Both the position numbers and the translations under genes were made by a program. From a virus (Duplodnaviria; Heunggongvirae; Uroviricota; Caudoviricetes): a stretch of 64,000 nt of DNA. Positions 27,829 to 46,290 of the stretch are shown one piece after another. Each line of letters begins with the position of its first letter. Within the stretch, counting starts at the first letter, position 1. The DNA is taken from IMG/VR virus record IMGVR_UViG_3300021138_000001. One strand, 5' to 3'. A model generated the notes under the pieces. That model made no database searches. It saw only the letters and a program-made list of their open reading frames with translations, and was not told the DNA's origin.

Positions 27829-27856
27829 TTGACATGAATTTTAAATGGCGTATGAT
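27829..27856 (+). promoter_or_regulatory. sigma70-like promoter (-35 TTGACA, 16-nt spacer, -10 TATGAT)
   Basis: Exact TTGACA 27829-27834; TATGAT 27851-27856. Confidence 0.55.
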
Positions 27857-27873
27857 ATCCCTACATTAATTAA

Positions 27874-28146
27874 TTGGAGGGAACTGTGGTCCTAATAACT
27901 GTGTTAACCATTTTCTTTGTAATCAGCCTCTACAACATTTTAAAGATTATCCAGATTTATTATTTTGATAAGCATTTTGCTAAGCGTATTGATGCGTATT
28001 GGGATAGTGTTGAGTCGCGCATAGAGAAGGGTGAGATTATCGATTGGGATAATGAACCTCGATTTGCGGTCCACCAATCTTTCGATAAGTTTTCGAGTTC
28101 TATGCCTTGGGACTATAACTTTGATAGGATGATTATCTATGTCTGA
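27874..28146 (+). CDS. small membrane protein
   Basis: ORF with N-terminal transmembrane helix. Confidence 0.35.
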   Translation: MEGTVVLITVLTIFFVISLYNILKIIQIYYFDKHFAKRIDAYWDSVESRIEKGEIIDWDNEPRFAVHQSFDKFSSSMPWDYNFDRMIIYV

Positions 28147-28927
28147 AATGATTGATTTTGGTTCTGGCCCAGTTCCAGCACATCGACACTCTAATGGAGG
28201 TGGATGGGTTGCCGACACTGCTCTTGTCACCGCCTCCGCTTATATCTCTGGTAGTGCTTGTGTCTATGGCAATGCTCATGTCTCTGGCGATGCTAGAGTC
28301 TATGGCAATGCTAGAGTCTATGGCAATGCTAGAGTCTATGGCAATGCTAAAATCCATGGCGATGCTAATGTCTCTGACAATGCTTATGTCTCTGGCAATG
28401 CTTGTGTCTATGGCAATGCTCATGTCTATGGCGATGCTCATGTCTATGGCGATGCTTATGTCTCTGGCAATGCTCATGTCTCTGGCAATGCTAATGTCTA
28501 TGGCGATGCTAATGTCTCTGGTAGTGCTCGAGTCTATGGCGATGCTAAAATCCATGAGCATATGTGGGTATCATTCTCACATGTAACCACTGATCTCAGT
28601 ACTGATTTAGTGGCTTCACTGCGTACTCAATGCAATCTCATGTTTATGAGAGATGAAGTCATCTGCTTTAAACGTGTTAAAGCTGATCTAAGCTCTGAAT
28701 ACGATGATAACTTCAAGTACGTGATAGGAGAATGGGCCAAAGTCAAAGATCCGGATATGTCTAATAAGTCATGCGCACCTGGCCTCCACTTCTCTCATGC
28801 TACCTATTATGATGTAACACCTTCTAGCAAGACCCTGATATGCAAAGTTCTAAAAGATGACATCATTACTATTCAACAAGGCAAGATTCGAGCCAAGAAA
28901 GCTTTAGTGCTGGGAGTATGTGAGTAA
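28139..28927 (+). CDS. YGNAxV hexapeptide-repeat protein (paralog family member 1, ~45 tandem repeats, distinct C-terminal domain)
   Basis: Protein repeats VYGNA(H/R/K)V / VSGNAxV; underlying near-perfect 18-bp DNA repeats. Confidence 0.6.
   Translation: MSEMIDFGSGPVPAHRHSNGGGWVADTALVTASAYISGSACVYGNAHVSGDARVYGNARVYGNARVYGNAKIHGDANVSDNAYVSGNACVYGNAHVYGDAHVYGDAYVSGNAHVSGNANVYGDANVSGSARVYGDAKIHEHMWVSFSHVTTDLSTDLVASLRTQCNLMFMRDEVICFKRVKADLSSEYDDNFKYVIGEWAKVKDPDMSNKSCAPGLHFSHATYYDVTPSSKTLICKVLKDDIITIQQGKIRAKKALVLGVCE
28255..28550 (+). repeat. tandem 18-bp (6-codon) coding repeats gtctatggcaatgct(a/c)(a/g)(t/a)
   Basis: Visible near-identical 18-mers in tandem. Confidence 0.7.
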
Positions 28928-29196
28928 TGGCTAAACAATATCGACTAAGAGAAACATTCAATTACAATAACACTGGACCTACATACTGGGTTGTAGAAGA
29001 AAAGACGCTTTTTGACTGGAAGAATGTATATGGTGACGCTTGTTCTTATAGGTATGGTGGCCGCGATTCCTTTCCGTATGATGAAGCCAAACAAAGGCTA
29101 GAAAATTGTGTCAAACAAGCAGCACTAGACGAAGAAGCCAGTACATTTAAGCCTCGTATTCTCACTCCACCCCTACCTGAAAGTGAACCGGAATGA
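28927..29196 (+). CDS. small hypothetical protein ending KPRILTPPLPESEPE
   Basis: ORF; C-terminus shared with 31228..31395. Confidence 0.35.
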   Translation: MAKQYRLRETFNYNNTGPTYWVVEEKTLFDWKNVYGDACSYRYGGRDSFPYDEAKQRLENCVKQAALDEEASTFKPRILTPPLPESEPE

Positions 29197-29375
29197 GTAA
29201 GAAAAATCTTCCAACTAAAGTGTATCGTGATCATGCCATTGAAGAAGTCAAACGTTTGCGGTATTGGTTTGCTGGCTTTAAAGCCGCTGGTGGAAAACTA
29301 CCACAATGTATCGAAACTTTAAACTGTTTGGTTAAAATTCAAACCCTTCTAGAAAAGGTAGAAGTATCAGAATGA
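29193..29375 (+). CDS. small hypothetical protein
   Basis: ORF track. Confidence 0.3.
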   Translation: MSKKNLPTKVYRDHAIEEVKRLRYWFAGFKAAGGKLPQCIETLNCLVKIQTLLEKVEVSE

Positions 29376-29548
29376 ATAACCATTATAAAGCTTTTCTATA
29401 TGCCTGTATAATTTGGATAACTATTGCTGCGCTAATAGGCTTGCTGTATATAGCATCAACACATTTTTGGTTGCTATTAGTGCTTGTAGGTATAGGAATA
29501 TTTTGGCTTACCCATACTATTATTATGGATTATCTAGATCATGGATAG
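29372..29548 (+). CDS. small membrane protein (58 aa, two transmembrane helices)
   Basis: ATGA overlap with upstream stop; hydrophobic. Confidence 0.3.
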   Translation: MNNHYKAFLYACIIWITIAALIGLLYIASTHFWLLLVLVGIGIFWLTHTIIMDYLDHG

Positions 29549-29879
29549 CCTATTTCTTTTAATCTGGTTTCATTTCCTAGCAGACTTTCCTTTTCAAGGA
29601 GAATTTCTAGCAAAGGCCAAGAATCGATATAATCCAATCAAAGGATTCAATCCACTCCTTGCTTTATTTGCACATGCATATATTCATGCTGGTGCAGTAT
29701 ACATTATCACAGGCAGTTCCTTACTGTCTCTAATCGAACTGATTACTCATATGTGGATAGACGATCAGAAGTGTAAGGGAGAAATTGATTCAGAAACCGA
29801 TCAATTATACCATATTGTATTGAAGGTACTTTACTTTTTATATATGATTATTTTCCATACGAAAGGAATTATCTCGTGA
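29541..29879 (+). CDS. membrane protein
   Basis: ORF track; hydrophobic. Confidence 0.3.
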   Translation: MDSLFLLIWFHFLADFPFQGEFLAKAKNRYNPIKGFNPLLALFAHAYIHAGAVYIITGSSLLSLIELITHMWIDDQKCKGEIDSETDQLYHIVLKVLYFLYMIIFHTKGIIS

Positions 29880-30223
29880 ATGTAGGATATTCGCCTCTTG
29901 AAGACATTCAATATGAACTACAATACATGCTTGACCCTACGTTTCGAGTTAATGATAATTTTTCTGATTGGCTCGAATTAGTCCCTTGCGTTGTGTGTAA
30001 GAATGGTCTAACATTCTCTATGCAAGCGTCATCTAGCCATTTTTGTACACCCAAGAGCAATGATGGCCCTTGGACGCATGTTGAGATTGGATATCCATCA
30101 GAACACCTTTATGATTTGGAATTGTATCGGGGTGATAATGAAGAGGGTGTTTTTGGTCGAGTTCCTATTGAACTTGTCACACAAATTGTTTATGCTGCTG
30201 GAGGATTGAAAGACGATGCTTAA
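29876..30223 (+). CDS. hypothetical protein
   Basis: ORF track. Confidence 0.3.
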   Translation: MNVGYSPLEDIQYELQYMLDPTFRVNDNFSDWLELVPCVVCKNGLTFSMQASSSHFCTPKSNDGPWTHVEIGYPSEHLYDLELYRGDNEEGVFGRVPIELVTQIVYAAGGLKDDA

Positions 30224-30422
30224 GAGGAATCCTATTAGTGTTCTTGATGTTTCTGATGAAATCAATAACGTCAAGGTCATTCTTATGGTAAGGAATGGTG
30301 TAAAATTGGTTTATTCGCCAAACTATCTTACGATTATGCGTCGAGATAAAATCGACAGCGTTTTTAAAAATGATAGCGAAATCCAACTTGCCGTAGACCG
30401 ATTTAACGATTTGGTGGGCTGA
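30216..30422 (+). CDS. hypothetical protein
   Basis: ORF track. Confidence 0.3.
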   Translation: MLKRNPISVLDVSDEINNVKVILMVRNGVKLVYSPNYLTIMRRDKIDSVFKNDSEIQLAVDRFNDLVG

Positions 30423-30425
30423 CAT

Positions 30426-30599
30426 ATGATAACTACTGATGTTTGTGGAAATTGTATTTATTTTAAGAAAACTACATCTCAATGTCATGGCCTTCCTCCA
30501 ACGACATTTGTTTTTAAGAATAGGAATGATGATCTAATTTTTGAACAGGCTCGGCCTTATGTGTCGGCTAATGATCTCAAATGTTCACTTTTTAATTGA
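30426..30599 (+). CDS. small Cys-rich protein (57 aa; CxxC...C...C)
   Basis: Manual translation, below ORF-track cutoff. Confidence 0.3.
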   Translation: MITTDVCGNCIYFKKTTSQCHGLPPTTFVFKNRNDDLIFEQARPYVSANDLKCSLFN

Positions 30600-30624
30600 C
30601 ACCGATCTGATTCCTGATATTATT
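30596..30624 (+). promoter_or_regulatory. sigma70-like promoter (-35 TTGACA, 17 nt, -10 ATTATT) with TATATAAT just downstream
   Basis: Exact TTGACA 30596-30601. Confidence 0.4.
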
Positions 30625-30650
30625 GCTATATAATAAATTTGGAGAAACCT

Positions 30651-30872
30651 ATGACACGGCCTATCACAATTACCTCGTCTAGTTCTAAGAACGGCACTCA
30701 GATTACTACACGATTTGTAGATGACGGAAGAGTGTCTGAGCATATCGAAATTTATGGTGATGATACCTTTGCCTATGTGGATACAGGGTTTGAATCTACG
30801 GCTATGTTCCAGATCGAATGCATTCCGGCTATTATTAAGGGTCTAAAGCACCTGCAAAGGAAGACGAAGTGA
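30651..30872 (+). CDS. hypothetical protein (start at ATG after TTGGAGAAACCT; ORF-track TTG start 30639 not used)
   Basis: Ribosome-binding context TTGGAGA. Confidence 0.35.
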   Translation: MTRPITITSSSSKNGTQITTRFVDDGRVSEHIEIYGDDTFAYVDTGFESTAMFQIECIPAIIKGLKHLQRKTK

Positions 30873-31060
30873 GCAATTATTATTCGTATCTGTACGTCGT
30901 TATGTGCGAGGATACTGGTGCTAGTGATATGCACCCTGGTGTCTCGGCTGTATTTGAAAGCCGTGAGAAGGCAGACGCATATGTCGAAAAGTGTATGGAT
31001 GCTCAATATCAACTCAGGTATTATATCGATACATCTTTTCTAAACGTTTTTGAGGATTGA
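30869..31060 (+). CDS. hypothetical protein
   Basis: ORF track. Confidence 0.3.
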   Translation: MSNYYSYLYVVMCEDTGASDMHPGVSAVFESREKADAYVEKCMDAQYQLRYYIDTSFLNVFED

Positions 31061-31227
31061 TATCATGATCATTATGAATATTCTAAACATTTTTTTCATT
31101 ATAATTGGTATTTTTTATCTAAACAAAATGGACCTAAATCCTTGTATAAGGGTAGTTTGGTGGCTATCGGTTGTTCTCAGTGCTATGTCTCTAGGTATGC
31201 GCCTGTTTAATTAGGGTAGTTTGGTAT

Positions 31228-31395
31228 ATGAATAAGGTATGGCTAGTTATTGAGAATTATGTCGCTCGTTATGAAGGCGACTATGACAGCACCGATGTAG
31301 ATAAGATTTTTGCGACGAAAGAAGCAGCAGAAGCTTATCTAGAAGGTAAGCCTCGTATCCTGACTCCTCCTCTACCGGATAAGGAACCGGAATAA
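31228..31395 (+). CDS. small hypothetical protein ending KPRILTPPLPDKEPE (paralog of 28927..29196 C-terminus)
   Basis: Manual translation; shared C-terminal 15-mer. Confidence 0.3.
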   Translation: MNKVWLVIENYVARYEGDYDSTDVDKIFATKEAAEAYLEGKPRILTPPLPDKEPE

Positions 31396-31525
31396 TCTCA
31401 TGATTAAAGACCTCTCCTTTAAAGCAATATGTCTAATAGTGGCTTTCTGGTTAGTGGTCATTACTCTAAGTTATGCTGTTAAATGGTTGATGTAATATAT
31501 TCTTTAAAACAGGAAAAAGTAAAAC

Positions 31526-31846
31526 ATGACATATTCTCTTTATAGGGTTTCTGATGGTATGGGGGACTCCGGTCCTATGTCAATGGCTCTTTGGCCATCC
31601 GACAACACAGAGGCTGAGAACTATCACATTTCGGGTGTAGAGTACGAGCATAGTGCTCGTCCTAGAGTGGGTGTAGCCATGAGAGTCGGAAGTATCGGCG
31701 TCAGGACTTTTCTGCAGGACTGGTGGCAGACGACTTTGATTACCGAGATTACTGATGAGTGGAAAGATACCACAGCTAATGGCGACGAAGTCGAATGCGT
31801 TCGATTTAAGACCGGTAACTCAACATATATCTGGAAGAAGTTTTAA
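31526..31846 (+). CDS. hypothetical protein
   Basis: ORF track. Confidence 0.3.
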   Translation: MTYSLYRVSDGMGDSGPMSMALWPSDNTEAENYHISGVEYEHSARPRVGVAMRVGSIGVRTFLQDWWQTTLITEITDEWKDTTANGDEVECVRFKTGNSTYIWKKF

Positions 31847-31904
31847 CTTATAATAATCTTAGATAAATTATTAGTATATTCCTCAATACAGTCGGAGACA
31901 AAAA

Positions 31905-32192
31905 ATGTTTAAGCGAATTATGTTGGGAACTGCTGTTCTCTGTACCATAGGTCTTACTATGGCATTTAGCCAACCTAAGACCAGTAATATCATGCATAAT
32001 ACCTATCACCCACAAGTCGAACGTGAGATCGAGAGTATGCAGCTTGCCTATAGCGGTGTATCTACCAAGGAAGATAAAGCTATGATCCGCACTCTGGCAT
32101 GGAACCTAGTTCGAGATGATGATATCTCGTCTCTTCCTCCTAACCTACAGAATTTCTATAAGACACTAGAAAAGGACGCAGTAAAGCAATGA
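31905..32192 (+). CDS. hypothetical secreted/periplasmic protein
   Basis: N-terminal signal-like MFKRIMLGTAVLCTIGLTMAFS. Confidence 0.3.
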   Translation: MFKRIMLGTAVLCTIGLTMAFSQPKTSNIMHNTYHPQVEREIESMQLAYSGVSTKEDKAMIRTLAWNLVRDDDISSLPPNLQNFYKTLEKDAVKQ

Positions 32193-32395
32193 GTTATTCA
32201 GTTGAACTAACTTATGAAATGGTTGACACGATTATCTTAAAAGAACTTAAGTTGTGTCGGCAGAATTTTGTTGATGATTTGGCTAGGGGTAATGCTCGTG
32301 TCTTCTCTATTGATCCCGAAGAAGATGCTGTAGAAATTCAAAGGATGGTCGATGCTCTTAATCTTATCATTTCTTGGTATAGTGTACCCGAATGA
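32189..32395 (+). CDS. hypothetical protein
   Basis: ORF track. Confidence 0.3.
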   Translation: MSYSVELTYEMVDTIILKELKLCRQNFVDDLARGNARVFSIDPEEDAVEIQRMVDALNLIISWYSVPE

Positions 32396-32539
32396 GCCTA
32401 AATGATGAACCTTTAGATGGTCGTGCAGAATTAGTTCTTGAAATGAGTCGTGAAGAAATCTATAATCTCATGATGATGGCTCATAGGCAAGATATTACTC
32501 TTAACAAGCTTATTGAAAAGCTGATAATCGATTATATAC

Positions 32540-32779
32540 ATGAATGGAGATATGACTGATATGAAGACATATTCTTATAATGAACCAGAATATGATGATG
32601 TCGGCAATATTGTAGGTAATCTGGTATATACTTTAACTGAAGAAGAGATTATCGATTCATATTATGTTCATTGGTCTAGAGAAATGTGCCATCAACGCAA
32701 GGATCATCTAGTTACTAAAGACAATTGTATTGATGATTGGGTTGCGGTTAATTGGGCTTGGGAAGTTAATAATGACTGA
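32540..32779 (+). CDS. hypothetical protein
   Basis: ORF track. Confidence 0.3.
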   Translation: MNGDMTDMKTYSYNEPEYDDVGNIVGNLVYTLTEEEIIDSYYVHWSREMCHQRKDHLVTKDNCIDDWVAVNWAWEVNND

Positions 32780-33113
32780 AGAACCCAAAAAGACGATTGA
32801 TTGGGATGAACTACAAAAACTTTCTGAACACATGAGAGAAAGTACTAATCAATACGAAAAGGACTGTGATACCTATTGGAAGAACCTTTCTTATGATGAT
32901 CAACTAAAGGCTTTCTATTCTGTAGTTAAACGTATACATAAAGGCGAACTTGAAGATCGTGGCTCTTATCGTTGGATTCTTTATGATGTATTTGGATTTG
33001 GTCCAGATTCTTATGTTATAGGTATGGATTGTGGATTTCTAGAGTTGCATAATTCTATCTATGATGAAAAAGACTTAGAAGAATATTCTAAGCGAAAAGT
33101 TATTTACAAATGA
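32772..33113 (+). CDS. hypothetical protein (start trimmed to ATG overlapping upstream stop)
   Basis: ORF track 32730..33113. Confidence 0.3.
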   Translation: MTEEPKKTIDWDELQKLSEHMRESTNQYEKDCDTYWKNLSYDDQLKAFYSVVKRIHKGELEDRGSYRWILYDVFGFGPDSYVIGMDCGFLELHNSIYDEKDLEEYSKRKVIYK

Positions 33114-33261
33114 AAGATCAATATGATCCTAATTCATGGGAAAACAGGTTCTTAATAGCTTGTACTATTTGGGGTATGGGCACTTTACCTATGGCCATTG
33201 TTTGGGTTATCATGTATATTATCTTTTGGATCGTACAACATGTTAGAATTGGAATTATATA

Positions 33262-33681
33262 ATGACTATTTTTGAAACTATCAAAGCTGATGTCCTTCAG
33301 GCTCGTAAGGATCGTGACCAAACTAAGGTGAACGTACTTAATACGCTTATTGCAGAACTATGCCGAGAAACTAAGGAACCGAATGACGACCAAGTTGTAA
33401 AGGTTGTTAGGAAGTTTCTTAAGAATCTTGATATCAGTATGTACGCTGTTGCTAAGGCAATTCATCTTACTCGTGAAAGTGATCTGAATACCCTTTCTCG
33501 TGAATATAAGATTGTGTCGGTATACAATAAGGAAGATGAAGCGGTTGATTTTCACTCCGTCGTTGATCAATTAATTGACGATAACCCTGGCAAGTCTATG
33601 GGTTGGTATCTTGGTCAAACCCTAAAGGCAGTAGGTGGAAATCCAATTGCTATTAAGACATATCTAGAAAGCAAAATTTAA
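33262..33681 (+). CDS. GatB/YqeY-domain-like protein
   Basis: N-terminal pattern resembling YqeY family; weak. Confidence 0.3.
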   Translation: MTIFETIKADVLQARKDRDQTKVNVLNTLIAELCRETKEPNDDQVVKVVRKFLKNLDISMYAVAKAIHLTRESDLNTLSREYKIVSVYNKEDEAVDFHSVVDQLIDDNPGKSMGWYLGQTLKAVGGNPIAIKTYLESKI

Positions 33682-33947
33682 TGAATAAGATTTTAGTACT
33701 AGCTATGGTTCTAACACTTACAGCCTGTCATAAGGTAGAACCACCAAAACAATATGATACCCTAGATAAGGTAAAAGATCGAATTGAAAACGGCGAAGCT
33801 GCAGTTGTGAGGGTGTGTCTTGAAGAAACCTATATCGTTAAGCTAGACGATAAGTATTATGTTCAGCATATTCATAGCGAACATAATATAGTAGGTGTAC
33901 TAGAAGACGGTGTGCCTGTAGATAGCGTTTGTCAGGAAAAGAAGTAA
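33681..33947 (+). CDS. small lipoprotein
   Basis: Signal peptide with lipobox LTAC. Confidence 0.45.
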   Translation: MNKILVLAMVLTLTACHKVEPPKQYDTLDKVKDRIENGEAAVVRVCLEETYIVKLDDKYYVQHIHSEHNIVGVLEDGVPVDSVCQEKK

Positions 33948-34744
33948 TGAAGATTAAACTAGCAAGTGACATACATTTGGAATTTTCTCCACATACAACT
34001 ATTCGGCAAAATGAAACTCCGGTTGATGTATTAGTTCTTGCTGGTGATATTTGTGTTGGTGACTATTTCACACGTCCTGTCGAGAGTCCTTATTATCAAG
34101 TAGCACACAATTTTGATCGGTTCTTTGCTATTGTTTCTGATGAGTTTGAGAATGTAATCTATGTTCCCGGCAACCATGAATATTATCGTGGTTATATTGA
34201 TAGAACGCTAGATGATATCCGCGAAGCTCTGTCCAAGTACAAGAACATTCATATTCTAAATGATCAGTTTGTTGATATTGGTGATACTCGATTTATTGGT
34301 TCTACTTTGTGGACTGATATGCATAGGGGTGATCCTCTTACTATGGAAACTCTTCGACATGGTATGAACGACTTTAAGTTGATTGAGAATAAGGCTACTC
34401 ATCGGAAGTTTCTACCCAAGGATGCTTTAGCGGTTCATATTCAATCAAGAAAGTTTATCTTTGATACTGCTAAGACTCACGATAAGTGTGTGGTAGTTTC
34501 TCATCATGCTCCTTCTGAAATGTCTGTCCATCCTCGGTATCGTCATGATTATCATATGAATGGTGGTTATTATTCTAATATAGAAGACGAGATCATCGAT
34601 CATCCTTCTATTAAAGCCTGGATGCATGGACATATGCACGACTCATTTGTTTATATGTTAGGGTCTACTTCGGTCTATTGTAATCCAAAAGGCTACAATG
34701 ACCAGAATCCACATTATAATAGGAACTTTGTTTATGAGTTATAA
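33947..34744 (+). CDS. calcineurin-like metallophosphoesterase
   Basis: Motifs DIHLE, GDICVGD, GNHEY, HHAP, GHMH. Confidence 0.65.
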   Translation: MKIKLASDIHLEFSPHTTIRQNETPVDVLVLAGDICVGDYFTRPVESPYYQVAHNFDRFFAIVSDEFENVIYVPGNHEYYRGYIDRTLDDIREALSKYKNIHILNDQFVDIGDTRFIGSTLWTDMHRGDPLTMETLRHGMNDFKLIENKATHRKFLPKDALAVHIQSRKFIFDTAKTHDKCVVVSHHAPSEMSVHPRYRHDYHMNGGYYSNIEDEIIDHPSIKAWMHGHMHDSFVYMLGSTSVYCNPKGYNDQNPHYNRNFVYEL

Positions 34745-35006
34745 GGATTTATCTGCTCGTCTTAGAGTACAAGCAGAGAACGTAGAAGAGGACGGGTGGT
34801 TCAATGCTGCTCGTCTAATGCGGGGTGCTGCTGATGAACTTGAAGAACTTAAAGCCAGAAATGCCGAGTTAACAAAACATCTTCTAATTACTACAGAAGA
34901 GTCTTGGCCTTATATTCATCAATGGTGTTCTATTGACCGAGTAAAAAAGAATTGGCTTGATGCCAGAGAATTTTTGCGTGGCAATGATCCAAAGGTTAAC
35001 TATTAA
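34734..35006 (+). CDS. hypothetical protein
   Basis: ORF 34698..35006 trimmed to ATG overlapping upstream stop. Confidence 0.3.
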   Translation: MSYKDLSARLRVQAENVEEDGWFNAARLMRGAADELEELKARNAELTKHLLITTEESWPYIHQWCSIDRVKKNWLDAREFLRGNDPKVNY

Positions 35007-39041: not shown

Positions 39042-39115
39042 TGTTGACGGTCGATTTAGCCTCTGTTAGCTTAGGGTCATAGGCGAAACGGTTTGCCTCC
39101 AAACAAGGGACTAAG

Positions 39116-39301: not shown

Positions 39302-39488
39302 TCGTGATTACGGCGTCTATGATGACGATGGTGAATTTTATGCGGCTCTTTTCCTTGACGATAAGGAAGTTGATGGTATGAACTTCTATAAGCGCAAGGA
39401 AGCTAAGGAATTTGGTAAGAAATGGGTCAAGGGTGGATGGAAGTCTATCTATCCTCACACTCCTGAAATGTGGGACAATGCAGAATGA
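39294..39488 (+). CDS. hypothetical protein (start trimmed)
   Basis: ATG overlapping upstream TAA. Confidence 0.3.
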   Translation: MSNRDYGVYDDDGEFYAALFLDDKEVDGMNFYKRKEAKEFGKKWVKGGWKSIYPHTPEMWDNAE

Positions 39489-39736
39489 ATGAAAATGAAA
39501 CGCTGTTCTCATTTAATGTGAACAAGAAAAAGACTAAGATTGTTGCTCTAACTGCTAGTGATGCAATGTATCAGGCTGTTAATCATTTCGATCTAGTCGA
39601 AGACTCTGGTGAATGGCTGATGGTTTCTCCCGGTAATTGGGCTGTTCCTACGGATGGTCCTGAATATACCTGGGTTACTGGTGATAATATTCTTAAGACT
39701 ACAAAGAGTCCTTGGGAAGCCTCCTGGCGTCATTAA
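39470..39736 (+). CDS. hypothetical protein
   Basis: ORF track. Confidence 0.3.
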   Translation: MGQCRMNENETLFSFNVNKKKTKIVALTASDAMYQAVNHFDLVEDSGEWLMVSPGNWAVPTDGPEYTWVTGDNILKTTKSPWEASWRH

Positions 39737-39749
39737 TAGGAAAGTAGTT

Positions 39750-39908
39750 ATGAAAATCTATTGGGTATTGGGATATGACCAATATTATCCCTTGGCTGAT
39801 AACTTTATGGATTCATTTGAAACCTATGAGGAAGCGGCTGAATATGCTGCTAAACGTCCGGGAAATCGTGACCATTACAACGTGATAAACATTTCGGATA
39901 GGCTCTAA
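39750..39908 (+). CDS. small hypothetical protein (52 aa)
   Basis: Ribosome-binding site AGGAAAG upstream. Confidence 0.3.
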   Translation: MKIYWVLGYDQYYPLADNFMDSFETYEEAAEYAAKRPGNRDHYNVINISDRL

Positions 39909-40084
39909 AAAACTTGTTGACGGGGCGATAGGATTGTGAGAGATTGTGGTTATCAAGAAAGGGAACGACATGAAATCGAGAAATCCTATCGCCCGCTTTG
40001 CACACAAATGTAATGTGGCAAAGGCTTTCCCTGCCAAAAAGGGAAAGGGTTCCGTTTTTAAACGCGATAAAAAGGTTGACACCG

Positions 40085-40306
40085 ATGTTTAAAGAATTTA
40101 AGATGCGCGAAGGTCTGGAAATTTTTAATAGGTCTCATGGCGGCGGTGGGTCGTCATGGTCTATGAAGGGATTTAATGACTTGACTGAAGCTGAAGCATA
40201 TGCTAAGTATATCCAGGAATCTCTTTGGGGATATGGTAGTACGGCTAATGTTCACACTAAGCCGGAACTTTATGTTTCGTGCCATTGCTATAATTCTTGT
40301 GATTAG
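40085..40306 (+). CDS. hypothetical protein (start trimmed)
   Basis: ORF 39998..40306 internal ATG. Confidence 0.3.
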   Translation: MFKEFKMREGLEIFNRSHGGGGSSWSMKGFNDLTEAEAYAKYIQESLWGYGSTANVHTKPELYVSCHCYNSCD

Positions 40307-40314
40307 GGGATAGT

Positions 40315-40638
40315 ATGTCGGTTAAGGCTAGGATTGAACTTGAGCAACGTATTGTCAAGATGACTATTGATGCCAGTCTAAAGGCTGGTTATGCTCTAGG
40401 CGTCTATGATGGTGAAGAATTTGTTGTTAAAAATTCCAAAGATGCTGATGAAATCTTTGGTGCTATGTTTAGCACTGATGAGGATACACTTTGCTTTTAC
40501 AATGAATCGAAAAAACGTATCGGCTGGGTTTACTTTATCTATGGCAATGATGGTTATGATGTCATCAGTGATTACACCACTAATCTTGAAGATGTCTTGA
40601 AGCCGATTAACGAATATTGCGATAGCTATATGGATTGA
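40315..40638 (+). CDS. hypothetical protein
   Basis: ORF track. Confidence 0.3.
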   Translation: MSVKARIELEQRIVKMTIDASLKAGYALGVYDGEEFVVKNSKDADEIFGAMFSTDEDTLCFYNESKKRIGWVYFIYGNDGYDVISDYTTNLEDVLKPINEYCDSYMD

Positions 40639-40673
40639 TCTAACTCTCTGATTTTCCCAACGAAATTTTTTTG

Positions 40674-40716
40674 TTGACACCCTGATTGGCCTATGAGATT
40701 ATGGGTCATCGAAACA
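40674..40716 (+). promoter_or_regulatory. sigma70-like promoter (TTGACA, 17 nt, GATTAT) plus conserved leader GGGTCATCGAAAC
   Basis: Exact TTGACA; leader shared with 42435 and 44518 cassettes. Confidence 0.5.
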
Positions 40717-40730
40717 AACGGAGATACCAA

Positions 40731-41042
40731 ATGGCCTACGCTTCTATTAATGTCGAAGTTGATCTGGATCAAGTGATTGAAAATTTCGATGTGTCTGACA
40801 TCCTGTGTGGACTTCTGTCTAACGATATCATTGAATATATCGTGGAAGACGCGCCTAACCGACTGATTGCTGCTTTGCGTGATGCTGGCGAATTGCCCGA
40901 AAATGCTGGAATTTTCTTTGAAATTGAGGAAAAGACTGCTATGCTTCAGGCTCTTGACATTTATGTCGCTGTCCAAAAGGCTACTGGTACGGGAATTATG
41001 ACCCAAAGCGAAATTTCTAGCTTGCGTGAAAAGCTGATCTAG
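40731..41042 (+). CDS. hypothetical protein (start after leader ACGGAGATACCAA)
   Basis: ORF 40686..41042 trimmed. Confidence 0.35.
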   Translation: MAYASINVEVDLDQVIENFDVSDILCGLLSNDIIEYIVEDAPNRLIAALRDAGELPENAGIFFEIEEKTAMLQALDIYVAVQKATGTGIMTQSEISSLREKLI

Positions 41043-41055
41043 GGTATGGTGACTT

Positions 41056-41090
41056 TATGGGAAGGCAATCGCGCCTTCCCATATTTTTCT
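41056..41090 (+). terminator. rho-independent terminator
   Basis: TATGGGAAGGC-AATCGC-GCCTTCCCATA then TTTTTCT. Confidence 0.65.
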
Positions 41091-41279
41091 GAAAAAAGAT
41101 TGTTGACAGATGAAAACTTATCGGTTAGTCTGGGAAATAGATATTGAGGCCGATAGCCCGACTGAAGCGGCTATCATTGCCAGAAATATTCAGCTTGACA
41201 GTGTGTCAACTGCTACTGTATTTGATGTATATGATGGTAATATCTTCGTCGAGTCTGTTGATTTAATCGGATAAGGTCA

Positions 41280-41717
41280 ATGATGAATAACGATCAAAAG
41301 CAAGCGATTGCTCAATATATCAATGCACCTAAGCATATCTATGCTTGCGCTGATGCAATTCGATATGATCTGATGCATGGTCCCTGCTGGTCACTGATTC
41401 CGCAAGGTATCATTGAAGACTTTACTATGGATCATGTTGCAACCTTTTATGATGATCTGGTGGATGCTATCATTGAAGGTGATGTAGTAGAAGAAACCTA
41501 TACCGGAATTGTTGCGGATACTCTGCGACAATATATTGACGAATTGCCTTGCGAACTGTATATTGAATGTGATACCGATTGCGTGATGGACAGTGAGCCG
41601 CAATGGGATTGGGATGAAGAATTGGGCGAAGATATCGAGCCTATGCCTTACTACATTGTGACGCATAAGTCTATTGTTGAAGCGGTGTTTGGTCCTACTA
41701 TTGCAAAGGAATTCTAA
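41280..41717 (+). CDS. hypothetical acidic protein
   Basis: ORF track. Confidence 0.3.
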   Translation: MMNNDQKQAIAQYINAPKHIYACADAIRYDLMHGPCWSLIPQGIIEDFTMDHVATFYDDLVDAIIEGDVVEETYTGIVADTLRQYIDELPCELYIECDTDCVMDSEPQWDWDEELGEDIEPMPYYIVTHKSIVEAVFGPTIAKEF

Positions 41718-41719
41718 TA

Positions 41720-41986
41720 ATGATTGCCTTTACTAAGATTAGTAATATCAAGATTAGCTATAGTGCTGATGATTGGCAATTGTATAATATTGATGGTCGT
41801 GATCGTGCGGCTGATGAATTGAATGCTGGTATGGCTGAGCTTATGTCTAATTGGCCTAGTAAGGCTGATGTAAATTGGAAGGAAATTGAAAATCTTCTGT
41901 TCAGCTATGCTGATTATGGCGCGGCGTATAGTGAAGGTTATCAAATGGTTGACTATATCTTTAGCAAGGTTTATGGAGAATACTAA
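41720..41986 (+). CDS. hypothetical protein
   Basis: ORF track. Confidence 0.3.
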   Translation: MIAFTKISNIKISYSADDWQLYNIDGRDRAADELNAGMAELMSNWPSKADVNWKEIENLLFSYADYGAAYSEGYQMVDYIFSKVYGEY

Positions 41987-42372
41987 TGCGCGCTCAAGAA
42001 ATCTTTGATACTGTAGCGACTCATCTGTTTACTCAAGGTAGACGAGCAATTACTATCGATGAGCAATGTGCGTATAAGACCAATGACGGTCTTAAGTGTG
42101 CTGTCGGTTGTCTTATTCCTGATGATATGTATTCTTCTAAGATGGAAAATACGGATGTTGTGACTCTTTTAGCATTTCAATCTGATTATGGGTATACTAT
42201 TCCTAAGTATTTTGCTCGAAATCAAGACATGCTTTCTCAGCTTCAGACTATTCATGATGATGAGTATTCTTGGTTATCCACTGAAGATATGAAGGATGCA
42301 CTTAAGAAAGTTGCTCGAAATCATCATCTTAAGATGTCTGTACTGAATAACCTTTCCTTCGAGGACCGATAA
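41986..42372 (+). CDS. hypothetical protein
   Basis: ORF track. Confidence 0.3.
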   Translation: MRAQEIFDTVATHLFTQGRRAITIDEQCAYKTNDGLKCAVGCLIPDDMYSSKMENTDVVTLLAFQSDYGYTIPKYFARNQDMLSQLQTIHDDEYSWLSTEDMKDALKKVARNHHLKMSVLNNLSFEDR

Positions 42373-42390
42373 TACTCCACAAATACTTTA

Positions 42391-42431
42391 GCCCATATGT
42401 GAGAGATTTTTTTCACATATGGGCATTTTTT
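42391..42431 (+). terminator. rho-independent terminator
   Basis: GCCCATATGTGAG-loop-CACATATGGGC then TTTTTTC. Confidence 0.65.
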
Positions 42432-42434
42432 CGT

Positions 42435-42492
42435 TTGACATAGTGTTTTAGCTAGTGCATAGTTAGTCCATCGAAACACGGGAAACACGGAT
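42435..42492 (+). promoter_or_regulatory. sigma70-like promoter (TTGACA) plus conserved leader GTCCATCGAAACACGGGAAACACGGATATG
   Basis: Exact TTGACA 42435-42440; leader motif CATCGAAAC. Confidence 0.5.
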
Positions 42493-43131
42493 ATGATCCG
42501 CCTCTCTAAAGCTTCTAAAATGCCGGGTAAGTCGTGGTCATTACAGGCGCGGGAAACATGTCCCGGCTCTATTGATCCGGCGACTAAGACGCTATTGCCG
42601 GTTTGTGCGGGCTGCTATGCCACGCAAGGGAACTATGTTTTTCCTAATGTCAAAGCGCCGCGCGAAGAAAACCGCAAGGATTGGAAACGCGAAGACTGGG
42701 TTTCTGATATGGTTGCTGCTATCGCCAAAGAAAAGTTTTTTCGTTGGTTTGATAGTGGCGACGTGTATCATCCTGGTTTGGCTGAAAAGATTTACTATGT
42801 GATGGAACAAACGCCGCACGTTAGGCATTGGCTCCCTACTAAGTCTTACAATATCCCCAAAATTCGCTTTTGGCTGAATATGATGAAAGAATTGCCTAAT
42901 GTGGCGGTTCGCTTTTCTTCGCCTACGGTAGATGGTATGTTTAGCGCGGAACATGGTTCCTGCGTAGTGCCAAGTTTTGATAGTGACACGCAAGCTAATG
43001 CCGTTTGCGATGCTTATGAACGGGACGGTAAATGCGGCGATTGTCGCGTTTGTTGGGATAAAACGGTTGACGTTGTTGCGTATGTGGCGCATAGTAAGAA
43101 GCTGATTAAGCAATTGAAGGCTGCGGCATAA
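42493..43131 (+). CDS. Cys-rich hypothetical protein
   Basis: ORF; clusters CPGS...C.GC near N-terminus, CGDCRVC near C-terminus. Confidence 0.35.
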   Translation: MIRLSKASKMPGKSWSLQARETCPGSIDPATKTLLPVCAGCYATQGNYVFPNVKAPREENRKDWKREDWVSDMVAAIAKEKFFRWFDSGDVYHPGLAEKIYYVMEQTPHVRHWLPTKSYNIPKIRFWLNMMKELPNVAVRFSSPTVDGMFSAEHGSCVVPSFDSDTQANAVCDAYERDGKCGDCRVCWDKTVDVVAYVAHSKKLIKQLKAAA

Positions 43132-43132
43132 A

Positions 43133-43315
43133 ATGAAAAGCGTTAGCGAACGGTTTGAAGACTTTGTAAATAGCGGCGCGAAGGAACAATATCCTGATGA
43201 TAGGGAAAGGCAATATGCCTATTCATATGGATATATGAATAGTATTATCGAAATACTGTCTGTGCGAGTCCCCGGAGTAGCTGAATACCTCGAAAACTAT
43301 ATTAAGGAAAATTGA
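43133..43315 (+). CDS. hypothetical protein
   Basis: ORF track. Confidence 0.3.
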   Translation: MKSVSERFEDFVNSGAKEQYPDDRERQYAYSYGYMNSIIEILSVRVPGVAEYLENYIKEN

Positions 43316-43320
43316 TAGCT

Positions 43321-43806
43321 ATGGCTTATATTGAAAATTCTAACAAAGTCTCTGGCAATGCTAATGTCTATGGCGATGCTCTAGTCTATGGCGATGCTGT
43401 AGTCTCTGGCAATGCTAATGTCTTTGGCGATGCTAAGATCCATGGCGATGCTCATGTCTATGGCGATGCTCTAGTCTATGGCGATGCTGTAGTCTCTGGC
43501 AATGCTAATGTCTCTGGCAATGCTTTTGTCTCTGGTGAAGCGAATATTTCATCTAATGATGATTGGTTTAGCCTGATCTATAGTGGTAAGACTTTGACTG
43601 GATATCGCTCTCGCAATGCTGATGGTTATGAACTGAATATTGATGGTCTCGCGGTCACTATTGGTGATGTGGCTGATGATCTGACGCCCAATCAATTGAA
43701 TGCGATTGATAAGTGGTCTAAGCCTACAAAGTCTGAGATTGATATTAGGATTGAAGCCCTGAAGACTGAATTGGCTGCTTTGGAACAAGCTATTAAGGAT
43801 CGTTAA
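43321..43806 (+). CDS. YGNAxV hexapeptide-repeat protein, paralog 3 (MAYIEN start; conserved C-terminal domain EANISSNDDWFS..RSRNADGYE)
   Basis: Repeats VYGDA(L/V)V / VSGNANV; C-terminal domain shared with 44001..44324. Confidence 0.55.
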   Translation: MAYIENSNKVSGNANVYGDALVYGDAVVSGNANVFGDAKIHGDAHVYGDALVYGDAVVSGNANVSGNAFVSGEANISSNDDWFSLIYSGKTLTGYRSRNADGYELNIDGLAVTIGDVADDLTPNQLNAIDKWSKPTKSEIDIRIEALKTELAALEQAIKDR

Positions 43807-44000
43807 TACAATGCACCGAGTAGGAATTCCTGATGATCTACTGGAACAAGCTATTGCAATACTGTATAGACTTGAGGAAGATGCCGAAGAACTTGGTTAT
43901 TATAGTAGATCAAACGAAGCGATTAGAATCGCTGATGAACTAAAAGTATATTTTAATGAAAACAAACAATAATCTACTAAAATAACTAAGGAACGCACAA

Positions 44001-44324
44001 ATGGCTTATATTGAAAACGAGAATAAGGTCTATGGCAGTGCTTATGTCTCTGGCAATGCTAAGGTCTATGGCAATGCTAATGTCTATGGCAATGCTGTAG
44101 TCTCTGGCGATGCTAGTGTCTATGGTGAAGCGAATATTTCATCTAATGATGATTGGTTTTCTATTACTATTCAGAATAAGATCATTACTGCCTATAAGTC
44201 TCGTAATGCTGATGGTTACGAAATCAATATCAATGGAATCAATAAAACCCTGGATGAAGTGAAACAATACTTCGGTTCTATTCAATGTGAACTAATCGAA
44301 TCCTGGAATAAACAATTGAACTAA
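44001..44324 (+). CDS. YGNAxV hexapeptide-repeat protein, paralog 4 (MAYIEN start)
   Basis: VYGSAYVSGNAKVYGNANVYGNAVVSGDASVYGEANISSNDDWFS. Confidence 0.55.
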   Translation: MAYIENENKVYGSAYVSGNAKVYGNANVYGNAVVSGDASVYGEANISSNDDWFSITIQNKIITAYKSRNADGYEININGINKTLDEVKQYFGSIQCELIESWNKQLN

Positions 44325-44517
44325 TAATGATATAATAAAGTAGTGTAAACATAAGACTCAATACACACTGAATACACACTGAAATAAAAAACTGTACTAC
44401 ACACCCAATGTGTATAGTGAAAAGTGATGTATTTAGACTTAGAAAAGAATGCCCTTTATTATGGGTTTGGCTTCTGTATGAGGCATGTGATTGATTTCTA
44501 TGGGGAAAAATAATTTA

Positions 44518-44580
44518 TTGACACGCAAACGCTGATAGGCCATTATGGGGACATCGAAACGCGGCTAGGGAATAACGGAT
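44518..44580 (+). promoter_or_regulatory. sigma70-like promoter (TTGACA, 17 nt, CATTAT) plus conserved leader GGGGACATCGAAAC...ACGGATATG
   Basis: Exact TTGACA 44518-44523; CATTAT 44541-44546. Confidence 0.55.
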
Positions 44581-44766
44581 ATGGAATTCGCCTCTGGTGC
44601 TGAAGCTGTGGCCTATTATTATTCCAAAGGTTTTTTCTATCGTGCGGAAGATATCTCTCGCTTAGATTATCGGATCATGTATAATCCCGATACGAATCAG
44701 GCGGTGGAAATCGAGCACAAAGGTTTTCTTTCTTGGGTTGCGGCTGAAATTCAAAATTTTTATTAA
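44581..44766 (+). CDS. hypothetical protein
   Basis: ORF track. Confidence 0.3.
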   Translation: MEFASGAEAVAYYYSKGFFYRAEDISRLDYRIMYNPDTNQAVEIEHKGFLSWVAAEIQNFY

Positions 44767-44775
44767 AAAAAGGTT

Positions 44776-44804
44776 TGACAGACTAAATCGCCTCTGATAC
44801 CTTA
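44776..44804 (+). promoter_or_regulatory. sigma70-like promoter (TTGACA, 17 nt, TACCTT)
   Basis: Exact TTGACA after A/T-run. Confidence 0.4.
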
Positions 44805-44829
44805 GATAAATCGAAGCAAGGAACACAAA

Positions 44830-45105
44830 ATGTCTTACAATGGTTGGACTAATCGCGAGACTTGGTTGGTCAATATCTGGTTTGGTGATGATGATTACCT
44901 TACGGATATGTCTGCGGCTGAAATTCAGAACGTCGTTGCTGAATACGTCGAAGAAAAGATCGGCGAAAGCGGCGGTTTCATCTATGATATGATCAATTTT
45001 GAATGTATTGATTGGGATGAGCTCGCCGACCATCACAAGTCTGATGATGAACTGGAAGATGATGACGATACTATTCAAGACGAAGATGATGAAATCGAAG
45101 AATAA
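44830..45105 (+). CDS. highly acidic hypothetical protein
   Basis: ORF; C-terminal DDELEDDDDTIQDEDDEIEE. Confidence 0.3.
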   Translation: MSYNGWTNRETWLVNIWFGDDDYLTDMSAAEIQNVVAEYVEEKIGESGGFIYDMINFECIDWDELADHHKSDDELEDDDDTIQDEDDEIEE

Positions 45106-45310
45106 CTAAATAGAATTAGAATTAAAGCTTGGTCTAAGCCTTACCAACCTACGGGAATTTGGAGTAGCTTAGACCAAGCGGATATTCTAGACTAATCTAG
45201 TGCTCCCCGGCAGGTATATCCTAGGCCATGATAGGGCACTACAGGAACAATAGAACAAAAGAGAACTGCGGTCTTTGACAATTAAATAGAAATTCTTCTA
45301 TCAGAAACAA

Positions 45311-45535
45311 ATGCGTTTCATGATATACTTTTTTTTGTTTGAAAGGTGTGGATCAATGCTTGGTTATATTGCGGGATATAATGGTAAAACTGTTGAAATA
45401 ACTGCGAGTAGTTTATATGCGGCCAAAATTGCTGCGACCATGCTACTAAATGCGCCTAAGTCTAAGGTGCATATGGTATGGGTTGCTTTGGCTGAAAAGG
45501 ATGGTGAGCCCGTTATACACATGGCGGTTGATTAA
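45311..45535 (+). CDS. hypothetical protein
   Basis: ORF track. Confidence 0.3.
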   Translation: MRFMIYFFLFERCGSMLGYIAGYNGKTVEITASSLYAAKIAATMLLNAPKSKVHMVWVALAEKDGEPVIHMAVD

Positions 45536-45657
45536 AGGTGCGGCAATGAAGCAAAAAAGTCTCTTGACACGCGCTGAAAGACAAGCTATCTTACGTGAGT
45601 ACTTAGGCAAGCGCAACGTGCTCTCGCCTATTCCCAAAGCGGCTTAAGGATCACAAG

Positions 45658-45894
45658 ATGAATCGCCCTCTCTATACTATCGCCTCGGATATCCGCAAGG
45701 CTTGGCCCAAGGTTAACTTTGCAGCTAAACCTTACCTTGACGCAATGTCTTCTCTGAATACTATGCAAGATGACTATTATTGCGACTCTGCTAAGTCTGT
45801 TGTTCTCTATTTCCTTTCCAACGCTTCGACCTTTCGCGGCGAACAAGCAAAGTCGCTGAAGGATGAACTAAAGGCAATGCTTAAGAGCGCCTAA
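45658..45894 (+). CDS. hypothetical protein
   Basis: ORF track. Confidence 0.3.
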   Translation: MNRPLYTIASDIRKAWPKVNFAAKPYLDAMSSLNTMQDDYYCDSAKSVVLYFLSNASTFRGEQAKSLKDELKAMLKSA

Positions 45895-46149
45895 TACTTG
45901 AACCGGAGGGGATTAGACTTGATCTAATCCCCTCTATACTTTGGAGCAAATACAAATGGCCCGTTTGATTGTTGAATTTGCAGTATTGACGATTTTTTTG
46001 ATCGTTCTTACTTGCCTATATATGACCTATACCTAACTAGACTGTATAGAGCAAAGCAGATTAAGGTTAAATTTTCGCGATTTCCCCATTGTTCCCTAAC
46101 CCATTGAAATTGCAGAGAAAAATAATTTTTCGGAGCATGTATTGAAGGG

Positions 46150-46178
46150 TTGACACCAAGTATTGTTATTGATAAGGT
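46150..46178 (+). promoter_or_regulatory. sigma70-like promoter (TTGACA, 17 nt, TAAGGT) leading into GC-rich hairpin cluster
   Basis: Exact TTGACA 46150-46155. Confidence 0.4.
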
Positions 46179-46290
46179 GGCTTCGCCACCGGGGGATTCG
46201 CCCCCGGCCGGCGGGGACGGACTCCCCGGCGATCTTTGACATTGTGAACCCCTAACCAAGGCGCGCGGCATTCCGTTGCGCGCCTAATCC
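46175..46290 (+). other. cluster of four consecutive GC-rich stem-loops
   Basis: GGTGGC-TTC-GCCACC; GGGGG-ATTCG-CCCCC; CGGGGA-CGGA-CTCCCCG; GGCGCGC-GGCATTCCGTT-GCGCGCC; GC content far above the rest of the window. Confidence 0.5.

Follow-up and report, generated by a model that had tools for sequence, protein, structure and literature searches.

Promoter(early) stem-loop elements (PeSLs) have been described in T4-like phages and consist of an upstream stop codon, an AT-rich tract, sigma-70-like -35 and -10 hexamers, a stem-loop with G/C tracts, and a Shine-Dalgarno (SD) sequence followed by ATG (PMC2839356; PMC4122927). Hyperplastic regions are rich in them, and the crossovers that were mapped fall between the -10 hexamer and the ATG (PMC2839356; PMC4122927). 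Promoter and terminator activity and the formation of mini-circles between neighbouring copies were addressed by reporter assays and inverse PCR (PMC2839356). Early promoters of T4-like phages further show phage-specific preferences next to the start site, with a consensus that extends to positions -3 to -1, and often lie before novel open reading frames (ORFs) (PMC1524935). Here, we analyzed a 64,000-nt stretch of a Caudoviricetes genome (IMG/VR record IMGVR_UViG_3300021138_000001), referred to as the window in its full length, in which a + strand region (27829..46626) of about 50 small ORFs of mostly unassigned function is interspersed with promoters and terminators. We consider it likely that this is the main hyperplastic accessory-gene region and that its promoters and leaders are paralogous, portable modules, some of them equipped with terminators, which resemble PeSLs.

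Perfect -35 elements are enriched on the coding strand of the region

The + strand between positions 27300 and 46650 contains 20 copies of TTGACA, compared to 5.9±2.3 expected from first-order Markov simulations, and none of 500 simulations reached this number. On the - strand of the same interval 6 copies were counted (6.1 expected), and over both strands of the whole window TTGACA was not enriched (55 vs. 49.6±6.5). Generic consensus scans gave no enrichment over shuffled sequences either, with 71 promoters vs. 60±7 and 15 terminators vs. 11±3 (within ~1.5 standard deviations), and the signal is therefore specific to a perfect -35 element on the coding strand.

About 11 sigma-70-type promoters are predicted in the region, all on the + strand, with TTGAC(A/G), a spacer of 16-17 nt and a -10 hexamer with A at its second and T at its sixth position. 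They sit in the gaps between small ORFs, ahead of start codons. A T/A tract lies upstream of the -35 element at most of them, though not at 37280, and a GGAG-, GGGA- or AGGA-like block with an ATG follows ~20-60 nt past the -10 hexamer at all except P41103 and the doubtful P46150 (promoters are named by the first position of the -35 element). A sequence-only reading of this DNA had listed eight TTGACA promoters. Seven of its coordinates (27829, 30596, 37099, 40674, 42435, 44518 and 46150) were exact and the eighth, placed at 44776, belongs at 44775. These sites have a T/A tract upstream, a -10-like hexamer 16-17 nt downstream and a start codon within 20-60 nt, 46150 being weak. Four promoters, 37280, 39044, 39917 and 41103, had escaped it.

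Two classes were distinguished. Class B (27829, 30596, 37099 and 37280) is marked by a spacer of 16 nt together with a good -10 hexamer (TATGAT, TATTAT or TAAAAT). Its members are P27829 (27829..27856; TTGACA-N16-TATGAT, CATC motif absent), P30596 (30596..30623; TTGACA-N16-TATTAT with a TG extension), P37099 (37099..37126; T7-G-TTGACA-N16-TATGAT) and the promoter/leader P37280 (37280..37342; TTGACA-N16-TAAAAT), which carries ATCGGAAAC at 37319-37327 and leads to an ATG at 37340.

Class A (39044, 40674, 42435, 44518 and 44775) combines a 17-nt spacer with weak -10 hexamers (TAGCTT, GATTAT, CATAGT, CATTAT and TACCTT, respectively) and usually a GGG-containing discriminator. The 9-mer CATCGAAAC or a variant of it (CATaggCGAAAC at 39078, AATCGAAGC at 44809) is located 4-5 nt past the -10 hexamer. 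A short leader rich in A and C comes next, with a ribosome-binding block of the form ACGGA(G/T)AT or GGGAA. In P39044 (39044..39118) the promoter/leader reads TTGACG-N17-TAGCTT-agggt-CATAGGCGAAAC, the 9-mer having a 3-nt insertion, with the ATG at 39116. Cassette P40674 (40674..40733) reads T7-G-TTGACA-N17-GATTAT-GGGT-CATCGAAAC-aaACGGAGATaccaa-ATG. Cassette P42435 (42435..42495), ahead of a GP88-family gene, reads TTGACA-N17-CATAGT-tagtc-CATCGAAAC-acGGGAAacACGGAT-ATG, and cassette P44518 (44518..44583), ahead of a 61-aa ORF, TTGACA-N17-CATTAT-GGGGA-CATCGAAAC-gcggctaGGGAAtaACGGAT-ATG. Cassette P44775 (44775..44832) reads A7-GGT-TTGACA-N17-TACCTT-agata-AATCGAAGC-aaGGAAcacaaa-ATG.

Three further sites stand apart from these classes. 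P39917 (39917..39945; A6-CTTG-TTGACG-N17-GAGATT) is a probable promoter with a weak -10 hexamer, and P41103 (41103..41131; A6-GATTG-TTGACA-N17-TAGTCT-GGGAAA) is ~150 nt away from the next called gene at 41280. The doubtful P46150 (46150..46178; TTGACA-N17-TAAGGT) lacks a T-run and is followed by a GC-rich leader with four hairpins (46176-46322; ~70% GC as judged by eye, -64.8 kcal/mol, z=-4.6), which precedes an 86-aa ORF (46320-46580) and gave no match in Rfam.

A start-site sequence is shared in fixed register

The exact 9-mer CATCGAAAC occurs in the window only at 40707, 42469 and 44552, in each case 33-34 nt after TTGACA. In 300 simulated windows, the maximum number of TTGACA sites with a common 9-mer at this offset was one (297 windows) or two (3 windows). 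Of the common leader that the sequence-only reading had assigned to these three promoters, the 9-mer was present in all three, while ATTATGGG ahead of it was found in two, 42458 reading CATAGTTAGTC instead.

A scan of the window and 12 kb flanks for TTGACA-N17/18-ANNNT-N4/5-CATC yielded six sites on the + strand and none on the - strand; simulations gave none (288 of 300) or one. Three of the six are located outside the region, at -599 (CATCATAAA), 7126 (CATCGAATA) and 11277 (CATCATAAC), and CATC(G/A)(A/T)AA at the start site is therefore a phage-wide property of the promoters. The promoter at 7126 (7126..7166, + strand) reads TTGACA-N16-TATTAT-aaat-CATCGAAta and that at 11277 (11277..11318, + strand) TTGACA-N17-TATAAT-agga-CATCataAC. 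From the usual distance of 6-8 nt to the -10 hexamer, the A of CATC is the predicted transcription start. Sigma-70 promoters benefit from a GGG discriminator and from a start of the form C(-1)A(+1)T, and both would compensate for the weak -10 hexamers of class A.

That the TTGACA sites and the common 9-mer are mere coincidences in an AT-rich genome is extremely improbable. The unenriched both-strand count and the generic scans would fit such an explanation, but the excess confined to one strand and one region, the fixed register of the 9-mer (three sites in 0 of 300 simulations), the six CATC sites against at most one, and the consistent position of the sites in intergenic gaps before start codons all argue against it.

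The strong promoter at 7126 is followed by ~300 nt without an ORF (7126-7455), in which GGTTCGATTCCGG at 7386-7400 resembles a tRNA T-arm. Neither an Rfam scan at gathering thresholds nor ARAGORN returned anything for this segment, which, judged by its sequence, may be an unrecognized RNA gene.

Terminators form composite units with promoters

Scanning and folding identified five terminators consisting of a hairpin and a T-run (-19 to -23 kcal/mol), each starting 12-19 nt past a stop codon; these are the same five strong terminators (27769, 39005, 41056, 42391 and 46593) that had been read from the letters before. The first (27764-27805, -22.2 kcal/mol) has a T-run, lies 32 nt ahead of the -35 element of P27829 and forms a composite unit with this promoter. 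The second (39004-39042, -21.0 kcal/mol) has a 13-bp stem (GGGGATATGGGAA/TTCCATATCCCC) and a T7 tract that runs directly into P39044. An 11-bp stem (TATGGGAAGGC/GCCTTCCCATA) with a T-run makes up the third (41056-41089, -19.6 kcal/mol), 20 nt ahead of P41103, and a 15-bp stem (GCCCATATGTGAGAG...) with T6 the fourth (42391-42431, -23.3 kcal/mol), 11 nt ahead of P42435. The fifth (46592-46626, -19.3 kcal/mol) is bidirectional and closes the region. Thus four promoters (P27829, P39044, P41103 and P42435) follow a terminator at a distance of 11-32 nt, and the T-runs of the terminators at 39004 and 42391 merge into the upstream A/T tract of the promoter. The heptamer ATATGGG/CCCATAT has eight copies in the window, four of which lie within three of the terminator stems.

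Two long perfect hairpins at 45905-45935 (-21.4 kcal/mol) and 46845-46888 (-28.5 kcal/mol) have GATTAGACTTG...CTCTATACTT in common and lack a clean T-run; a hydrophobic mini-ORF of 26 codons (45957-46037) is located between them. Rfam gave no match in the cassettes or in 45.85-47.3 kb.

Promoter/leader cassettes are alignable beyond chance

The 75 nt after the -35 element of 14 promoters (91 pairs) were locally aligned and compared with 4000 shuffled pairs. The highest score was obtained for P42435/P44518 (score 32, 0/4000), whose alignment comprises CATCGAAAC, a 5-nt indel, the linker and SD-ATG block GGGAA(A/T)(C/A)ACGGATATG and 9 of 10 positions into the coding sequence. P40674/P44518 (score 25, p~0.001) and P37280/P44775 (score 24, p~0.002, covering the entire leader up to the ATG) followed, together with P39044/P44775 (score 22, p~0.0035), whose likeness runs via GCCTCTG(T/A)TA(G/C)CTTAG in the spacer and -10 hexamer, and the AT-rich pair P30596/P926 (score 23, p~0.002). 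In total, five of the 91 pairs reached p<=0.0035 where ~0.3 were expected. GCCT(C/A)TG(A/T) is found at an equal offset in the spacers of P39044, P40674 and P44775, and 39035-39065 is 74% identical to 40665-40695. P44775 is a mosaic with a spacer and -10 hexamer (GCCTCTGATACCTTAG) akin to those of P39044 and a leader akin to that of P37280. Since the likeness extends to positions with no known role in a promoter and forms a mosaic network, the cassettes are best regarded as paralogues reshuffled by recombination. The alignment that had been proposed as a check of the duplicated expression cassette hence came out in its favor, both for the pairs P42435/P44518 and P40674/P44518 and in the overall number of related pairs.

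The likeness could in principle also have arisen without any duplication, by selection of strong early promoters toward one extended consensus. This we regard as unlikely. Such selection would account for the CATC located 4-5 nt past the -10 hexamer at six promoters including those at -599, 7126 and 11277, for the -35/-10 spacers of the three cassettes with the exact 9-mer, which are not alike, and for the recurrent start-site 9-mers that other phages have of their own (L079/L010 and L119 with CATCGAAAC; L180 and L206 with a composition-matched control 9-mer, CATAGCAAC). It does not account for significant likeness at non-promoter positions, namely the GGGAA(A/T)(C/A)ACGGATATG linker, the P39044/P44775 spacer and the P37280/P44775 leader, nor for the surplus of related pairs. 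Moreover, in the relatives L043 and L091 only one of the 4-5 TTGACA promoters carries the motif; together with L064, each has one homologous promoter with the 9-mer and other promoters without it. No TTGACA/-10 promoter was found on the + strand upstream of gp6 in the loci of gp6 relatives (53-75% identity).

The GP88-family gene behind P42435 was considered as a possible carrier of its cassette. A cassette travelling with this gene was rejected, as the motif is absent at 40 loci of GP88 homologues. In the upstream regions of GP88 homologues on 20 other viral contigs no comparable terminator-promoter cassette was present, and most homologues abut the preceding ORF; those of L147 and L149 have a T-run+TTGAC site ~115 nt upstream. 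The cassette is therefore local to the window phage, and in the window the GP88 gene appears to have been placed behind it. Proteins of the GP88 family natively begin with MI(R/K)LSK, and the string that this start has in common with the ORF at 44581 sits there in a different frame. From these sequences, the stretch shared by P42435 and P44518 past the ATG may be a coincidence or a copy from the GP88 cassette.

In two independent assemblies (Logan SRR398181 and JGI 3300021137), a contig begins precisely at 44551, the base preceding CATCGAAAC. An exact repeat as short as the one at this position would by no means interrupt an assembly graph, and the break may mark the junction of a population variant at the cassette. 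Breaks at 37079/37082 adjoin a short tandem duplication (GGGCAAGAGCC x2) and others fall into solenoid or GGGTCCC repeats, so that only 44551 is left without an explanation; assembly breaks were rejected as too weak a proxy for population variants.

The start-site 9-mer as a possible signal

In a viral collection, TTGACA-N27/28-CATCGAAAC gave at least 120 matches, and most of the matches listed are genuine promoter contexts. A view of CATCGAAAC as a start-site motif that is both special and widespread was rejected, as the control 9-mer CATAGCAAC likewise gave at least as many matches as could be listed. Among the matches listed, a -10 hexamer was in place at 80 of 109 sites for the control and 56 of 114 for CATCGAAAC, and an SD sequence with a start codon at 60 of 109 and 63 of 114, respectively. 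As the control behaves like CATCGAAAC in this collection, any A/C-rich 9-mer of the type 'CA...' acts alike.

The 9-mer might nevertheless be an operator or a signal in the 5'-leader RNA through which a phage or host factor co-regulates a subset of the early genes. It has been kept perfectly while its flanks diverged, it overlaps the predicted start, which is a typical operator position, and it accompanies weak -10 hexamers that could depend on an additional factor. However, CATCGAAAC has no dyad symmetry, a candidate regulator was not identified, and a sequence complementary to CATCGAAAC was not found elsewhere in the window. Its gradual decay (CATCGAAta, CATCataAC and AATCGAAGC) is also what a core-promoter preference would produce, and the control 9-mer performed alike in the viral collection. 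We therefore hold a regulatory role of this kind to be decidedly unlikely.

On the - strand of L090 (IMGVR_UViG_3300028146_000026), at an offset of ~1135, the sequence TTGACA-N16-TAGTCT-tacta-CATCGAAACACGGGAACACGGGGAACACGGAAATG was found. Its leader (CATCGAAACACGGGAACACGG...) nearly equals 42469-42495 of the window but precedes an unrelated gene, which could reflect convergence, a common host or transfer of a cassette. L090, L119 and L121 have promoter or leader features in common with the window and no protein similarity to it. The near-identical leader before an unrelated gene in L090 would fit a combined possibility, in which CATCGAAAC/CATC(G/A)(A/T)AA would be a dedicated signal and the cassettes would perhaps be mobilized, for example as mini-circles, between co-infecting phages. 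We judge this to be quite unlikely. If true, a phage factor might use the signal to tell early promoters or mRNA 5' ends of the phage from those of the host, or to silence a subset of the accessory genes jointly.

The region is specific to one lineage of T4-like phages

The window belongs to a distant T4-like phage (~38% GC) with a 156-kb genome from a freshwater habitat, Trout Bog Lake. Look-ups of exact proteins placed it within a contig of 156,302 bp (ENA ERZ27271863 k141_174784). In the phage collection, gp6 was matched best by Caulobacter phage Cr30 (43% identity), and megablast gave no nucleotide-level match to the window. Ten exact-protein look-ups for close variants returned only contigs with 99.9-100% identity from Trout Bog samples, a metagenome scan with the Band_7 protein recovered only an identical fragment, and the closest distinct relatives in the searched collections have ~60-75% protein identity, none being closer.

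The accessory region (27829..46626) is HYPERPLASTIC. Its left border is formed by the terminator 27764-27805 and the promoter at 27829, its right border by the bidirectional terminator 46592-46626, so that terminators are found at both ends. Counted conservatively, 48 ORFs of the + strand do not overlap and start in an SD-like context, with a median length of 83.5 aa, in agreement with the more than 40 small + strand ORFs that had been noted at first sight, and a separate gene call on an identical contig lists 31 genes in 32.56-43.3 kb (10.8 kb), all on the + strand. Recognizable products are a metallophosphoesterase, an SPFH/Band_7 protein, the GP88-family protein, a Gad2-like nucleotidyltransferase, a DUF3307 membrane protein and four YdcK beta-solenoids. 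The GC content is 4-8 points above that of the flanking structural genes, and the GC skew is strongly positive.

To the left, a gp5-like protein of 677 aa (24080-26113) is followed by a PAAR protein. The large + strand genes past 47.2 kb encode T4-type baseplate proteins (gp25, gp6, a gp7-like wedge protein, a gp8-like protein and DUF4815/PA14), of which gp25 (47266-47676, + strand) has homologues directly near gp6 in relatives. In the window, ~21 kb separate the gp5/PAAR genes from gp25/gp6. In L284, L288 and L290, whose gp6 is 55-60% identical, the gp5-like gene is followed by a gap of ~0.2-0.4 kb and then by gp25-like and gp6 genes; Cr30 has no more than PAAR and two small ORFs (~0.7 kb) between gp5 and gp25/gp6. 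As the flanking genes are adjacent or nearly so in these relatives, the region is lineage-specific and hyperplastic, which bears out the word hyperplastic in the sequence-only reading. Other relatives (L286, L287, L326 and L327) hold unrelated DNA at the corresponding locus, including tRNA genes on the opposite strand with TTTACA-N16-TATAAT promoters, and the gp5-gp25 locus is thus a hot spot of accessory DNA.

Seven T4-type late promoters (TATAAATA) were located on the + strand of the window, at 9692, 10499, 12900, 13462, 20156, 26488 and 47224, in most cases with 30-45 nt between them and the protein or RNA gene that follows, and none of them is within 27.8-46.6 kb of this strand. The region is most likely expressed early, as judged solely from the type of its promoters and the absence of TATAAATA.

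A portable-module reading of the region

We thus favor paralogous promoter/leader modules in a hyperplastic region as the explanation of the array. The accessory block would have been inserted between the gp5/PAAR and the gp25/gp6 baseplate genes and would be transcribed early in infection by unmodified host RNA polymerase with the primary sigma factor. The five terminators would split the array into short, insulated transcription units, roughly ten in ~19 kb, and CATC(G/A)(A/T)AA would have a function, either in the core promoter or in the sequence that is transcribed first. Duplication and recombination may have spread and reshuffled the cassettes, which would explain the common spacer, linker and possibly first codons. 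In this way, every gene newly acquired could come under a promoter and ribosome-binding site of its own, in many cases together with a terminator. By analogy to PeSLs, the cassettes probably also act as short patches of homology for the insertion, deletion and exchange of genes.

Several points weigh against this explanation. A stem-loop (-19.6 to -23.3 kcal/mol) adjoins only four of the ~11 promoters (27829, 39044, 41103 and 42435). The longest exact stretches common to cassettes measure 9-10 nt, and the likeness is confined to blocks of 15-45 nt. Part of the common leader sequence belongs to the phage-wide start-site consensus and is not a product of duplication. The match of P42435 and P44518 beyond the ATG may be coincidental, and their score drops to ~25 without it. 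Finally, the use and timing of the promoters, the positions of transcript starts and the efficiency of termination are predictions.

Other features of the window

Four paralogous YdcK-type beta-solenoid genes (28139-28927, 37340-37525, 43312-43806 and 44001-44324) contain an 18-nt periodic DNA repeat, and assemblies from other samples break within these genes. The nucleotidyltransferase-like protein encoded at 35752-36330 matched Pfam Gad2 (anti-Gabija) and nucleotidyltransferases of PHROG, and is by these matches a candidate anti-defense protein. The segments 29148-29194 and 31347-31393 (47 nt, 83% identity) form the 3' ends of the ORFs 28927-29196 and 31228-31395; their likeness points to paralogous C-termini and a further duplication inside the region.

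The most notable feature outside the accessory region is an array of ten GGGTCCC copies at 46982-47207 (within 46959-47210), which follows the end of this region and precedes the late promoter TATAAATA at 47224. The copies share the + strand and have a period of ~22 nt, with a 44-nt super-repeat, TACGGGTCCCTTTCAGAAAAGTATAGGGTCCCCCC; 1.4 copies would be expected in the whole window. A scan of the viral collection for three GGGTCCC spaced by 21-25 nt returned 88 loci compared to an estimated ~1 expected, some of which are ordinary coding repeats. Non-coding arrays with a spacing of 22-25 nt were found in phiCbK-like phages of Caulobacter (putatively Rogue, Karma and Colossus), and two phiCbK-like records (223,720 and 220,934 bp) have the array at two loci each, possibly terminal repeats. 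Arrays of this type are also present in L121, L357/L384, L359, L369, L382 and L396. No mention of GGGTCCC arrays was found in the phiCbK genome paper by word search. Iterons, or a protein-binding array of another kind, are possible explanations.

The phage encodes a permuted two-piece tmRNA (9646-10030; RF04321 112 bits, alpha_tmRNA 79 bits). The late promoter TATAAATA at 9692 is located inside the longer of these matches and just before the shorter one. A tmRNA adjoining tRNA arrays is also present in the relatives L064 and L091. The phage-encoded tmRNA hints at a host of alphaproteobacterial type. In 13364-14543, a DUF7487 ORF (13496-14407) has its own TATAAATA at 13462, and the segments flanking it are nearly contiguous in L043 and L091; by this comparison the ORF looks like an insertion.

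Comparison with known systems

The window phage belongs to the Cr30/freshwater branch and is far from the T-even, pseudo-T-even and schizo-T-even groups. The arrangement of its accessory region is ordinary for T4-like phages and on its own opens no new question. In the PeSL picture, the accessory genes of T4-like phages form self-contained modules of promoter, gene and terminator, and the regulatory ends of these modules are mutually related. The window carries this picture over to a T4-like lineage of freshwater that is close to Cr30 and distant from the phages of enterobacteria and vibrios in which PeSLs were defined, and it provides an annotated set of promoters and terminators with two promoter classes for an uncultured phage, which could guide transcript mapping or the reuse of parts.

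Compared with the early promoters of T4-like phages (Nolan et al., 2006, PMC1524935), the window promoters have in common an A-rich UP-like tract, a strong -35 element, a -10 hexamer with A-11 and T-7, a C at -3 to -1 and, in many cases, a position before novel ORFs, with TATAAATA restricted to conserved late genes. They differ in the -35 element, which is TTGACA in the window and GTTTAC in the T4-like set, and in a conserved block that reaches ~+8. A more distant analogy exists to integron cassettes, which likewise form arrays of small, unrelated, horizontally acquired genes between short recombination-prone repeats. Integron cassettes, however, are promoterless and rely on attC and an integrase, whereas the units of the window have their own promoter and a dedicated recombinase is not evident.

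The PeSLs of RB49 and phi1 (Arbiol et al., 2010, PMC2839356) are intergenic elements in a hyperplastic T4-type region as well, and share with the window the AT tract, a near-consensus TTGACA, the 17-nt spacer, a -10 hexamer, an SD sequence and ATG of a small ORFan, and copies that resemble one another. Their G/C-tract stem-loops (GGGG...CCCC and GCCC...GGGC) function as terminators, an activity that is predicted here. In contrast to these PeSLs, the window has a stem-loop at four of ~11 promoters, always upstream of the -35 element, weaker -10 hexamers, blocks of likeness of 15-45 nt compared to ~100 bp, and the lineage-specific start block CATCGAAAC. In T4/PST and KVP40/nt-1 (Comeau et al., 2014, PMC4122927), an intergenic PeSL accompanies every member of certain runs of ORFs. 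There, PeSLs were defined from pairs of close genomes, whereas the cassettes of the window come from a single genome. Each of these lineages has its own stem and -35/-10 consensus, and the window would add a further flavor. The comparison supports the assignment of the window cassettes to the PeSL kind already described, with the structural features present, the stem-loop at four promoters and the likeness in shorter blocks, and a role in recombination suggested by analogy.

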